DNA from: Escherichia coli
GTDB taxonomy: Bacteria > Pseudomonadota > Gammaproteobacteria > Enterobacterales > Enterobacteriaceae
Assembly: GCF_003019035.1 (NCBI RefSeq)
Contig: NZ_CP027447.1
DNA: 64,000 nt
Strand: one strand, 5' to 3'
Part shown: piece after piece, positions 540 through 62,488 of the stretch
Position numbering within the stretch: the first letter of the stretch is position 1
Layout of the letters: each line of letters begins with the position of its first letter
Notes under the pieces: generated by a model
The model's database searches: none
The model's input: the letters and a program-made list of their open reading frames with translations, nothing else
What the model was told of the DNA's origin: nothing
Made by a program: the position numbers and the translations under genes

Positions 540-775
540 GTCGCCAATCCTGGAAAGAGTATTAAGCGTAAATGATGCCAGAGCGCAAAGCGTTCAATGG
601 TTTGAGTAAGGGGCAAAACAGGCGGGATTTAGGGCGTTTATGCAAAAAATAGGTTCAGTTGCAGAACGTTTTGCGAACCATTTTCCAGTTCTGAGATTTA
701 GCCATTTAGCCTATAGAATCGCCCACCGCCTCTCTGTTAGTTTGCTAATAATTAAATTATTACAAAGGCGATCAA

Positions 776-2284
776 ATGGAATGGCAACAATTGCTTAACT
801 GCAACCGTCGGAAAGATAATCTAAAAAAAACCAGCATAGAATTTTTACATCCCCTTGCTAGCGGAAGACAAGAGATCGAGCGGGATTACGACCGATTACT
901 TTTTGCTGCGCCAACTCGTCGGCTTGCGGATAAAACACAAGTTTTCCCGTTAGATCAAAATGACAGTATACGGACGAGGCTGACTCATTCTCACGAAGTA
1001 GCAAACTTTGCTCGCGGAATAGGAATGAGACTCGCTTTCGAGATGAAGGAACACATCTTTGGCGAAATACCCACGGGGATTGTCGTTGAACGCGACGTTC
1101 CTGCTCTGTTAGCAGCGATCGGACTGGCACACGATCTCGGTAATCCACCATTTGGGCATCAAGGTGAAGCAGCGATGCGCGCATGGTTTAATAAAAATCT
1201 TCCAGGCCTTCTTGATAAAGAAGTAAACAGCGAAATATATAACGACTTTCTGCAATTTGATGGAAACTCACAAACCCTGCGCCTGGTTACCAAATTACAA
1301 ATTATTAACGATAACTTTGGTCTGAATCTGACCTATGCCACGCTGGCTGCACTGATCAAATATCCCCGAGCTTCATATTCATCGGACAAACATTGGAAAA
1401 AGCACGGTTTTTTCTATTCTGAGCATGAGGTTGTCATGGATGTCTGGCAACAAACGGGCCTTGGCGTACCAGGTAATGATGCCGGTTGCCGCCACCCATT
1501 TACCTGGATAATGGAAGCTTGCGACGATATTGCCTACTCTGTGCTGGACGCAGAAGATACCATCAAGAAAGGATTTGCCTCATACCAGGATTTGCGTGAT
1601 TTTTTGATGTCACAATCCGAGCCGAACGATGTAATTCAACATGTTATTGAAGCTGTAGAGGCCAAAAATGACGCCTGGAAAGAGCAAAGAAATGCACTTT
1701 CACCGGCGGAAATTAATGAACTCAGTATGCAAATGTTCAGAGTTTATGCCACCAGTGCATTGATTAATGCCGTAGTAGAAGCCTTTCGCGAACAATTACC
1801 CACGCTGATGCAGCGTGACTGCCCGTTCAAAGATTTAATCTCGCAAAGCAAAGGTCACGCTCTCTGCACTGCCCTGAAAATGTTCGACCGAACACGAGGC
1901 TACTTTCATCGTTCAGTCTTGCAACTGGAACTTAGGGGATCTAATTACATTACTAACTTGATGGATATGCTCTGGATTGGCATCCATGGACACAAAACAA
2001 AGAAAGAACGAGACGGAGAACGCGAGTCCGCGTCTACAGATAACCTTTTTGTTTCTCGTGAAGAATACCTGTCGGATACTCCCTTTGGTCGCTATGCTTA
2101 CGGGACAATCTCTGAAAATTATCGCCGTGTGTTTGAAGATCCCGCCAATACACTCCCTATTCTTTATAAAGAAGCGCAGTTGCTTACCGACGCAATCTCA
2201 GGCATGACGGATAGTTATTTAATGCGCCTTCACGATGAGCTAAAATCACTGTATGAATGTGGTCTCAAACACCCAACAGCTTGA
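776..2284 (+). CDS. Dgt-family HD-domain deoxynucleoside triphosphate triphosphohydrolase homologue (dGTPase-like), accessory copy
   Basis: 502-aa ORF with AAGG RBS about 9 nt upstream; motifs TRLTHSHEV, LAHDLGNPPFGH, TWIMEACDDIAYSVLDAED and C-terminal ISGMTDSY align with E. coli Dgt motifs as I recall them; local GC about 35-42%. Confidence 0.8.
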   Translation: MEWQQLLNCNRRKDNLKKTSIEFLHPLASGRQEIERDYDRLLFAAPTRRLADKTQVFPLDQNDSIRTRLTHSHEVANFARGIGMRLAFEMKEHIFGEIPTGIVVERDVPALLAAIGLAHDLGNPPFGHQGEAAMRAWFNKNLPGLLDKEVNSEIYNDFLQFDGNSQTLRLVTKLQIINDNFGLNLTYATLAALIKYPRASYSSDKHWKKHGFFYSEHEVVMDVWQQTGLGVPGNDAGCRHPFTWIMEACDDIAYSVLDAEDTIKKGFASYQDLRDFLMSQSEPNDVIQHVIEAVEAKNDAWKEQRNALSPAEINELSMQMFRVYATSALINAVVEAFREQLPTLMQRDCPFKDLISQSKGHALCTALKMFDRTRGYFHRSVLQLELRGSNYITNLMDMLWIGIHGHKTKKERDGERESASTDNLFVSREEYLSDTPFGRYAYGTISENYRRVFEDPANTLPILYKEAQLLTDAISGMTDSYLMRLHDELKSLYECGLKHPTA

Positions 2285-3005
2285 ACAGCGTATCGCCGAT
2301 TTTTTTACGCTTAGTGATGAGCATAAGAAAGCCAGAGTATTACTTGATACTCTGGCCTGTTCCTGTCCGGCCTGGATTTTTGGCGGGATGGTGCGTGACT
2401 TAGGCTTGTTTGGCGTCGAGGGATTCTCTTCAGACCTTGATATCGTCATCGGTCGCTCCCGTGAGGAACTCTTCCGGACATTGGCTGAACTGCCCGTCAA
2501 ACAACTGCGTTTTAATAAGTTCGGTGGGATCCGTTTTCGTTATCACGACTTCGAATTTGATATCTGGAACCTCAATGAGACATGGGCATTTCGGGAAAAA
2601 CTTATATTTTGTGAGGATGAATCAAGTCTGTTAAACACTACGCTGATGAGTTGGGATGCCGTGCTCTATGATCTACGTAGTGAAAAAATTATCAGTAAAG
2701 ATAATTATTTGACCGACTTAAATCGCAGACATCTTGAACTTGTTCTTCATACTAACCCCAATCCAAGCGGTTCGGTAACGAAAATTTTACGCACTATTTT
2801 TACTAAGCAGGTAAAGAGTTTAGGTCCGGAACTCTGTCATTTCTTGCACCATGAACTGACGAAAAAACGTTATGAAGTTTGGCATCATTACGATGTACTG
2901 CACTACCAGTCATCGTCATTTTCTCGTTCACAATTTAATGCGTTGATAAATTTACTGGCGCAACAATCACGCTTCGCTGATCTAAAATTATCAAATTACA
3001 AATAA
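2253..3005 (+). CDS. Pol-beta superfamily nucleotidyltransferase-like protein (tRNA-NT/poly(A) polymerase head-like motif), unknown function
   Basis: 250-aa ORF overlapping the upstream gene by 32 nt; motif WIFGGMVRDLGLFGVEGFSSDLDIVIG resembles the GGxVRD...DxD head motif of CCA-adding enzymes and PcnB; the rest has no recognisable body/tail domain. Confidence 0.65.
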   Translation: MNVVSNTQQLEQRIADFFTLSDEHKKARVLLDTLACSCPAWIFGGMVRDLGLFGVEGFSSDLDIVIGRSREELFRTLAELPVKQLRFNKFGGIRFRYHDFEFDIWNLNETWAFREKLIFCEDESSLLNTTLMSWDAVLYDLRSEKIISKDNYLTDLNRRHLELVLHTNPNPSGSVTKILRTIFTKQVKSLGPELCHFLHHELTKKRYEVWHHYDVLHYQSSSFSRSQFNALINLLAQQSRFADLKLSNYK

Positions 3006-3049
3006 CCATCCTCCACATACTTCCTGAACGATACCCGCCCCCCTGCTAT

Positions 3050-3074
3050 CGGCCTGGCATCATCGCGCAGGCCG
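3050..3074. other. 7-bp inverted repeat hairpin (CGGCCTG-N11-CAGGCCG) between the cassette 3' end and the cheZ stop
   Basis: Perfect inverted repeat read in sequence; no flanking T-run on either strand, so not a canonical intrinsic terminator. Confidence 0.3.
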
Positions 3075-3092
3075 AAGTTAAGGCAATACAAA

Positions 3093-9422: not shown

Positions 9423-9449
9423 TTATCGGCAAGGAAGGGGGAAACTTTA
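9423..9449 (-). promoter_or_regulatory. Sigma-28 (FliA) class 3 promoter upstream of tar
   Basis: Minus strand reads TAAAGTTT-N11-GCCGATAA, an exact match to the sigma-28 consensus. Confidence 0.7.
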
Positions 9450-9476
9450 TTGCTGATGCCACCCGCCGCGAAATTG

Positions 9477-9507
9477 AAATAAAAAACCCGATGCGCAGAT
9501 CATCGGG
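9477..9507 (-). terminator. Intrinsic terminator downstream of cheW
   Basis: Hairpin CCCGATG...CATCGGG followed by a T-run on the minus strand. Confidence 0.6.
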
Positions 9508-9535
9508 TTCATTTCAATTGAGGAAATCGGGAGAA

Positions 9536-46752: not shown

Positions 46753-47169
46753 GCCAGACGCAGCACATTCTTGCATTCGACGAGCTGCGCCTTTATTTAT
46801 TATCAGCCGCAAATGTCTTGTCCTTAGACGCTCTTTCCACATGCGCCACAAGAAACCTCTATTCCAGTGACACAATTATGCCTGATTATTTCCCTAGCCC
46901 GGAATATGAATAAAAACATCAAATAAGATGAAATTATCAAAATATTAATGTTGCGTCTGTGGTCGTAACAACAACCGACCTGGTGATGCGTGTTAAAGGA
47001 GACACTCTGATGTTCAGGGGGGTTATCACGTATACAGATCGTGGATGGCAGAAAACTTTCAGAATCAGGTTTCCATTTTAAACCAGAAATTGAGTGAGTT
47101 TGCCCCATCAATGCCCCACGCTGTGAGTTTGGATGTCATTAAACAAGCACAATCAACACGTAACACAAC

Positions 47170-57363: not shown

Positions 57364-58149
57364 ATGATGCAGGTAACAAGCGATCAATGGCTTTCCTGGT
57401 TAAGCCTGTACTTCTGGCCGTTACTGCGCGTGCTGGCGCTCATTTCTACCGCACCAATTCTGAGCGAACGCAGCGTGCCGAAACGGGTAAAACTGGGTCT
57501 GGCAATGATGATCACGTTCGCTATTGCCCCATCATTACCTGCCAACGATGTTCCTGTTTTTTCGTTCTTTGCTCTGTGGCTGGCCGTGCAGCAGATCCTG
57601 ATCGGCATTGCGCTTGGTTTTACCATGCAATTTGCCTTTGCCGCTGTGCGAACCGCTGGTGAAATTATCGGTCTGCAAATGGGGCTGTCATTTGCGACGT
57701 TTGTCGATCCGGCCAGCCATCTCAATATGCCCGTTTTAGCGCGTATCATGGATATGCTGGCGTTACTGCTGTTCCTGACATTTAACGGTCATTTATGGTT
57801 GATTTCACTGCTGGTCGATACCTTTCACACCCTGCCAATTGGTGGCGAACCGTTGAACAGCAATGCGTTTCTGGCACTCACCAAAGCAGGGAGTTTGATT
57901 TTCCTTAACGGGCTGATGCTGGCATTACCGCTCATTACTCTGCTGCTGACCCTGAATCTGGCATTAGGCTTACTTAATCGTATGGCCCCGCAATTATCCA
58001 TTTTTGTTATTGGATTTCCATTAACTCTGACTGTCGGTATCTCTTTAATGGCGGCATTAATGCCGTTAATTGCGCCTTTTTGCGAACATTTATTCAGTGA
58101 AATATTTAATTTGCTGGCTGATATTATTAGCGAATTACCATTAATATAA
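57364..58149 (+). CDS. fliR: Flagellar export apparatus protein FliR
   Basis: 261-aa polytopic [55 protein letters not shown]... Confidence 0.95.
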
Positions 58150-58438
58150 TTCCGTAACGTTTATCATGTTATCCTAAGGATTATCCGAAAAATAATACCT
58201 ACGAACATCTTCCAGGATACTCCTGCGGCGAAATATTTGTTTTAAGCTCACTCACATATCGCAACATTTACTTTACTTTAAGACAATTCCAGGCAAATTA
58301 TACAACACTTTACGGGATAGTAAGTCCGCCTGAAAAATCGCGAGAGTGGCGCATTAGGTGACCCATGTTGTTCCGTTTAGTCATGATGAAATATTCAGGT
58401 AAGGGGAATTATCGTTACGCATTGAGTGAGGGTATGCC

Positions 58439-59062
58439 ATGTCAACGATTATTATGGATTTATGTAGTTACACCCGACTAGGTTTAACCGGGTATCTGTT
58501 GAGTAGAGGGGTTAAAAAAAGAGAAATCAACGATATTGAAACCGTTGATGACCTTGCCATAGCTTGTGATTCACAGCGCCCTTCAGTGGTGTTTATTAAT
58601 GAGGACTGTTTCATCCACGATGCTTCTAACAGTCAGCGTATCAAGCTCATCATTAATCAACATCCCAATACGTTATTTATCGTTTTTATGGCAATTGCCA
58701 ATGTTCATTTTGATGAATATCTATTGGTCAGAAAAAATTTATTGATCAGTTCTAAATCGATCAAACCGGAATCTCTCGACGATATCCTTGGCGATATTCT
58801 GAAAAAAGAGACAACGATAACCTCGTTTTTAAATATGCCGACGTTATCATTGAGCCGAACCGAATCGAGTATGTTGCGAATGTGGATGGCAGGTCAGGGA
58901 ACCATTCAAATCTCTGACCAAATGAATATCAAAGCCAAGACCGTTTCATCGCATAAAGGTAATATTAAACGTAAGATCAAAACGCATAATAAACAGGTTA
59001 TCTACCATGTCGTCCGACTGACGGATAATGTGACTAATGGTATTTTTGTCAACATGCGCTAA
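58439..59062 (+). CDS. rcsA: Colanic acid capsule regulator RcsA (LuxR-type)
   Basis: 207-aa [48 protein letters not shown]... with C-terminal HTH. Confidence 0.95.
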
Positions 59063-59105
59063 CACATTCTGACTGGTGGTTTCCCACCAGTCAGGCTGAA
59101 TTAGA

Positions 59106-59384
<279 letters not shown>

Positions 59385-59456
59385 CTATACTTAAGAGATG
59401 CCAGGCGGACTTAACGACTGGCGGCAACAACAGAGTAACGGTTGCGAGGAAAGATG

Positions 59457-59684
59457 ATGAAAACCGCAAAAGAGTACAGCGATACCGCAAAACGTGAGGT
59501 CAGCGTCGATGTCGATGCCCTGCTGGCGGCGATCAATGAAATTAGCGAAAGCGAAGTTCATCGCAGCCAGAACGATTCTGAACACGTTAGCGTCGATGGA
59601 CGTGAATATCATACATGGCGTGAATTGGCGGATGCCTTCGAACTGGATATTCATGACTTCAGCGTCTCTGAAGTGAATCGTTGA
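59457..59684 (+). CDS. yodD: Stress-induced protein YodD
   Basis: ORF MKTAKEYSDTAKREVSVDVDALLAAINEISESEVHRSQNDSEHVSVDGREYHTWRELADAFELDIHDFSVSEVNR; start at MKTAKEY within track ORF. Confidence 0.9.
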   Translation: MKTAKEYSDTAKREVSVDVDALLAAINEISESEVHRSQNDSEHVSVDGREYHTWRELADAFELDIHDFSVSEVNR

Positions 59685-59697
59685 ATGCACAATAAAA

Positions 59698-59784
59698 AAA
59701 TCCCGACCCTGAGGGGGTCGGGATGAAACTTGCTTAAGCAAGAAGCACTTAAAAAATTCGTTACACCAGGAAATCTGATGTGTT
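59698..59784 (-). ncRNA. dsrA: Small regulatory RNA DsrA (rpoS activator / hns repressor)
   Basis: Reverse complement reads AACACATCAGATTTCCTGGTGTAACGAATTTTTTAAGTGCTTCTTGCTTAAGCAAGTTTCATCCCGACCCCCTCAGGGTCGGGATTT, matching the DsrA sequence as I recall it, including its terminator hairpin. Confidence 0.9.
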
Positions 59785-59963
59785 CATCACCTTATCCGCA
59801 ATTTTTTTCGCTGACAAGAAAATATTCGTGATATGAATGATTAACGCTGCTTATGAATAGAAATGTGACGCGCGTCACCCCTTGGTGGCTCTGGTGTCAA
59901 CGGGATCGCTCCCGAAAAAATCATCTTTGATTATTTGTGCTGTTTTGAGAATCATCCTGGTAA

Positions 59964-62488
<2,525 letters not shown>

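Follow-up and report, generated by a model that had tools for sequence, protein, structure and literature searches.

The short interval between yodD and yedP in this stretch of Escherichia coli DNA raises the question of whether its minus strand encodes the small RNA DsrA, as the original prediction held, and whether that gene comes with the promoter, structure and pairing sites known from K-12. DsrA is a textbook regulator, which activates RpoS at low temperature and counteracts silencing by H-NS. It also contributes to acid resistance and, through rcsA, to capsule control, and its gene takes its name from the 'downstream region of rcsA'. We searched the window, that is the whole 64-kb stretch of DNA analysed here, with the Rfam 15 models at their gathering thresholds. 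Of the five matches returned, one was RF00014 (DsrA) at 59784..59698 on the minus strand, which are exactly the coordinates that had been claimed. The Rfam/Infernal search with the DsrA model, named by the original prediction as its check, was strongly positive: with 102.5 bits (E = 1.5e-18 in the 64-kb window) the match exceeded the gathering score of 60. The alignment spans model positions 1-85 of 85 untruncated, and its structure line shows standard pairs throughout, free of non-canonical marks. A narrower, permissive rescan of 58100..60100 returned the DsrA match again (E = 4.8e-20), and the competing families that this rescan placed over dsrA all stayed far under threshold, namely anti-hemB (25.7 vs 49.5), Betaproteobacteria toxic sRNA (21.7 vs 50) and EF3314_EF3315 (17.4 vs 100). 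These sub-threshold matches are probably driven by the terminator hairpin.

Comparison with K-12 gave the same answer. The 87 nt in the window are identical at 87/87 positions to the first 87 nt of MG1655 dsrA (b1954, NC_000913.3 2025223..2025313), so the full-length DsrA sequence is present as had been stated. The K-12 feature measures 91 nt because its annotation includes the rest of the T tract (four more Ts), which ends at window position 59694; it therefore corresponds to 59694..59784. Accordingly we place the 5' end (+1) of dsrA at 59784 and its 3' end within the T tract, at 59698 for the 87-nt form or at 59694 for the 91-nt K-12 annotation. We found no sequence evidence contradicting the DsrA assignment. 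Taken together, we consider it about 98% probable that the minus strand of 59698..59784 carries the chromosomal dsrA of an Escherichia coli strain other than K-12, encoding the 87-nt Hfq-dependent sRNA DsrA. As such it is an already known gene and a correct but ordinary find, with no new biology.

The neighbourhood is that of K-12. Feature mapping onto NC_000913.3 yields the gene order rcsA, dsrB, yodD, dsrA, yedP, dgcQ found in that strain, and the order at the locus is unchanged in an O157:H7 record. Upstream of rcsA (58439..59062, plus strand) lies fliR (57364..58149, plus strand, 2.9% diverged from K-12), and rcsA is followed by dsrB (59106..59294, minus strand, 0 substitutions). The next gene, yodD (59457..59684, plus strand, 0 differences from K-12 b1953), converges on dsrA, while yedP (59982..60797, plus strand, K-12 b1955, 2.7% nucleotide divergence) is transcribed divergently from it; dgcQ (60794..62488, minus strand) is 2.1% diverged. 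The mapping thus bears out the predicted position between yodD and yedP on the minus strand. Two finer points of location need rewording. The sRNA gene had been called antisense-adjacent to the 3' end of yodD, and it is indeed the convergent neighbour, but antisense overlap does not apply since the 13 nt between the yodD stop codon and the end of dsrA (9 nt if the 91-nt annotation is used) keep the sRNA gene clear of the coding sequence. Likewise, 'next to rcsA' is true only loosely; rcsA lies 635 nt away, with the two genes dsrB and yodD in between. Within this locus we also observed a palindrome at 59051..59117, between the convergent stop codons of rcsA and dsrB, where a miRNA-hairpin model gave weak sub-threshold matches on both strands. 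It is most simply read as a bidirectional terminator hairpin.

The RNA has the expected architecture. Folded alone, DsrA forms three hairpins at -31.9 kcal/mol in both the minimum free energy (MFE) and the centroid structure; 200 dinucleotide shuffles gave -16.7 +/- 3.3 kcal/mol, none of them as stable (0/200, z = -4.67). Stem-loop 1 occupies nt 4-22 (59763..59781, minus strand, as for all parts of the RNA) and combines a 7-bp stem with an AUUUC pentaloop, both in the MFE/centroid fold and in the Rfam consensus structure. It is followed by linker 1 (nt 23-34, 59751..59762), an A/U-rich single strand reading AACGAAUUUUUU. For the limits of this linker we relied on an NMR study that defines SL1 as residues 4-22, Linker1 as A23-U34, SL2 as beginning at A35 (35-60) and SL3 as the rho-independent terminator (PMC5766208); the stem-loop boundaries found here agree with that study. 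Stem-loop 2 (59725..59750, nt 35-60 by the NMR model) is the conformationally flexible middle hairpin, and our MFE fold extends it to nt 26-59 and bulges C53, which corresponds to one of the alternative models in the literature. Stem-loop 3 and its T tract fill 59694..59724, corresponding to DsrA nt 61-85 and then the U tail. The terminator scan resolved the hairpin at 59724..59700 into 10 pairs, 7 of them G-C, around a 5-nt loop, and recognised it as an intrinsic terminator solely in the minus-strand orientation. The terminal stem-loop of the original prediction is thus in place, as a G+C-rich 10-bp stem followed by TTTTTTATTG.

Could this hairpin with its T/A tract at 59694..59724 be no more than the terminator of yodD, and the likeness to DsrA incidental? 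The geometry would allow it, as the hairpin starts 16 nt past the yodD stop codon (59684) and the plus strand of 59300..60100 holds no other terminator-like site. However, the hairpin runs into a T tract only when read on the minus strand; what follows it on the plus strand is GAAACTTGC. Moreover, the match to the DsrA model spans its 85 positions in full and takes in stem-loops 1 and 2, well beyond the hairpin, and the sequence is that of an experimentally defined K-12 gene. We therefore regard this explanation as vanishingly improbable, effectively refuted by the full-length Rfam match and the identity to K-12. The same scan nevertheless leads to a separate idea about an intact dsrA. It reported no plus-strand terminator-like site for yodD within 400 nt of its stop codon, and yodD is strongly RpoS-dependent (PMC10957080). 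Because of these two properties it is conceivable that yodD transcripts read through past the DsrA hairpin into dsrA, where antisense RNA or interference from convergent transcription would act as local negative feedback. If this were true, DsrA would raise RpoS, RpoS would increase yodD transcription and yodD read-through would in turn lower DsrA. We consider such a loop distinctly unlikely.

A further alternative accepts dsrA as intact and holds that it is differently regulated, or partly silenced, in this strain by way of a diverged upstream region. The putative core promoter, read from the sequence, spans 59789..59817 on the minus strand. It consists of a -35 hexamer TTGTCA (59817..59812), a 17-nt spacer and a -10 hexamer TAAGGT (59794..59789), after which 4 nt lead to the A at 59784. 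We take this arrangement to be the weak, temperature-responsive dsrA promoter described by Repoila and Gottesman (2001/2003). A generic scan for the sigma-70 consensus over 59300..60100 reported no promoter. The dsrA promoter was missed because TAAGGT fits only 3/6 consensus positions and so fails the scan criteria, and the null result therefore does not count against dsrA. Farther out, the spacer between dsrA and yedP (59785..59981) carries 10 substitutions in 197 nt relative to K-12 (5.1%). Those closest to dsrA fall at -45 and -46 (59829 and 59830), just upstream of the -35 hexamer, where a UP element or a regulator site could lie. Over 59600..60000, an identity of 99% or more to the window is reached by only 322 of 5340 genomes, and by this sequence comparison the spacer of our strain is a minority allele. 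These observations would fit altered regulation. On the other hand, no change from K-12 occurs in the core promoter (-1 to -44). In 2003, Repoila and Gottesman are said to have placed the thermoregulatory determinants in the -10 box and the spacer of the dsrA promoter. In addition, strain CFSAN061771 matches the 401 nt around dsrA without a single difference (100% identity), so that at least one further sequenced strain has exactly this upstream allele. We judge it very unlikely that dsrA is regulated differently here and retain the reading as an ordinary chromosomal dsrA. As a side observation, the 401-nt query from the dsrA region was split into two places in the GmF046 genome, which suggests an insertion near dsrA in that strain.

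That reading is in line with the conservation of the gene. Of 5426 complete E. coli genomes searched by megablast, 5338 contain the 87 nt of dsrA, 4973 of these at an identity of at least 99%, and the median copy number per genome is one. The 6-kb stretch around dsrA is 98.1% identical to K-12 and 98.2% to the O157:H7 strain, and divergence is unevenly spread within it: dsrB, yodD, dsrA and the gap between yodD and dsrA show zero substitutions relative to K-12, unlike yedP, dgcQ, fliR and the dsrA-yedP spacer, which diverge by 2-5%. Complete identity of dsrA to K-12 amid flanks diverged by 2-5% restates the strong constraint already known to act on DsrA. Compared feature by feature with K-12 DsrA (b1954; RF00014), the gene has the same 87 nt, three stem-loops, terminator and promoter from -1 to -44, the same flanking genes in the same orientations, and the same complementarity to rpoS and hns. 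The RNA itself shows no difference from K-12, and what differs lies outside it, in flanks that are about 98% identical and in the 10 spacer substitutions, the nearest at -45/-46.

The original prediction also stated that DsrA regulates rpoS and hns. As both genes lie outside the window, we used their K-12 sequences as pairing targets. The optimal duplex between DsrA nt 1-36 and the rpoS leader joins DsrA nt 10-32 (59753..59775, minus strand), the predicted rpoS-pairing segment, to K-12 rpoS -119..-97. It comprises 21 bp at -26.4 kcal/mol, arranged as two helices split by a 2-nt internal loop; among 1000 dinucleotide-shuffled versions of the DsrA segment, only 2 reached this energy. The site coincides with the published one, for which DsrA 1-32 and rpoS -119..-95 were used (PMC5766208). 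An earlier form of the test, in which full-length DsrA was paired with rpoS and compared with shuffles, gave z = -1.45; it ignores intramolecular structure, which leads to implausibly long duplexes and an inflated background, and it was replaced by the test limited to the known single-strand and seed segments. For hns, the longest unbroken complementarity measures 13 nt and pairs DsrA nt 31-43 (59742..59754, minus strand), the putative hns-pairing segment, with hns +7..+19. The energy test with DsrA nt 23-60 was weaker and only moderately above chance, as 18 of 1000 shuffles reached the hns value. The linker and SL2 segment has been assigned to pairing with hns, mreB and rbsD (PMC5766208). With both published pairing sites recovered on K-12 targets, the complementarity supports the proposed regulation of rpoS and hns. 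Of 5426 E. coli genomes, 5241 carry the rpoS leader from -160 to -61 at an identity of 99% or more, and for that reason the source strain almost certainly has the target site as well.

If the gene works as described in the literature, its action would begin at the weak promoter (TTGTCA, 17-nt spacer, TAAGGT), from which more dsrA would be transcribed at low temperature. Higher dsrA transcription at low temperature has been reported for K-12 (PMC8544407). Hfq would then bind the A/U-rich linker and the 3' U tail; DsrA carries both, the linker as AACGAAUUUUUU, and linker 1 would accordingly be expected to form an Hfq contact. On pairing with rpoS, stem-loop 1 would be unwound, and DsrA would open the inhibitory hairpin of the rpoS leader that hides the ribosome-binding site, a mode of action known as anti-antisense. 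Opening of the leader would raise RpoS translation and protect the mRNA. In published work, Hfq-assisted annealing opens the leader hairpin and frees the ribosome-binding site, and DsrA annealing guards rpoS mRNA against RNase E and against premature termination by Rho (PMC5766208). On hns, pairing just past the start codon would block translation and destabilise the mRNA, and a block of hns translation by DsrA pairing has been described (PMC5766208). Lower H-NS levels would indirectly de-repress H-NS-silenced genes, among them the nearby rcsA.

DsrA shares its target with two other Hfq-dependent activators of rpoS, RprA and ArcZ, but these are unrelated to it in sequence, are encoded at other loci and respond to other inducing signals. 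Both act on the rpoS leader hairpin by the anti-antisense mechanism, as does DsrA. Neither the scan of the window nor the rescan of 58100..60100 placed the RprA or ArcZ Rfam family at dsrA. All three are named as sRNAs that regulate RpoS translation (PMC8544407).

The practical value of the find is limited to completeness of annotation. In the RefSeq E. coli records annotated by PGAP that we examined (NZ_AP018488.1 and others), no feature lies under the dsrA match, whereas the curated K-12 record does annotate the gene. Automated annotation of the source strain would probably miss dsrA too.

Several other features of the window caught our attention. Between flhB and cheZ, about 2.4 kb (644..3080) are absent from K-12 and hold two overlapping plus-strand open reading frames. 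One of them, at 776..2284 (502 aa), was recognised by the anti-phage dGTPase model of PADLOC at E = 9e-71 and carries the Pfam domains HD and HD_assoc; the other, at 2253..3005 (250 aa), was matched by neither Pfam nor PADLOC. The segment may represent a small defence islet, with the latter gene as an uncharacterised partner. The IS1H element that lies upstream of flhDC in MG1655 is absent at about 15195..15202, where the flanking alignment blocks abut. This absence is expected for a strain other than MG1655, and it bears on motility regulation. The central part of fliC (38246..38817) has no K-12 match and presumably specifies a different H antigen. The adjoining segment 38817..46888, from the 5' part of fliC through yedL, is only 91.8% identical to K-12 vs about 98% elsewhere, which suggests a recombined segment. 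At its end, near 46888, K-12 positions 2011215..2012431 (the yedN pseudogene and the start of the intG cryptic prophage remnant) are without counterpart, and the neighbouring alignment blocks meet at a single position.

Two loci concern other RNAs. A full-length match to C0465 RNA (RF00116) lies at 9439..9516 on the plus strand, with 111.6 bits against a gathering score of 40. Collinearity places it between tar and cheW, with the che/mot operon on the other strand, and the K-12 record has no feature at this position. Finally, the three tRNA genes at 27730..28028 on the minus strand correspond to the glyW-cysT-leuZ operon of K-12, in which the 3'ETS-leuZ sRNA sponge is annotated directly downstream of leuZ.
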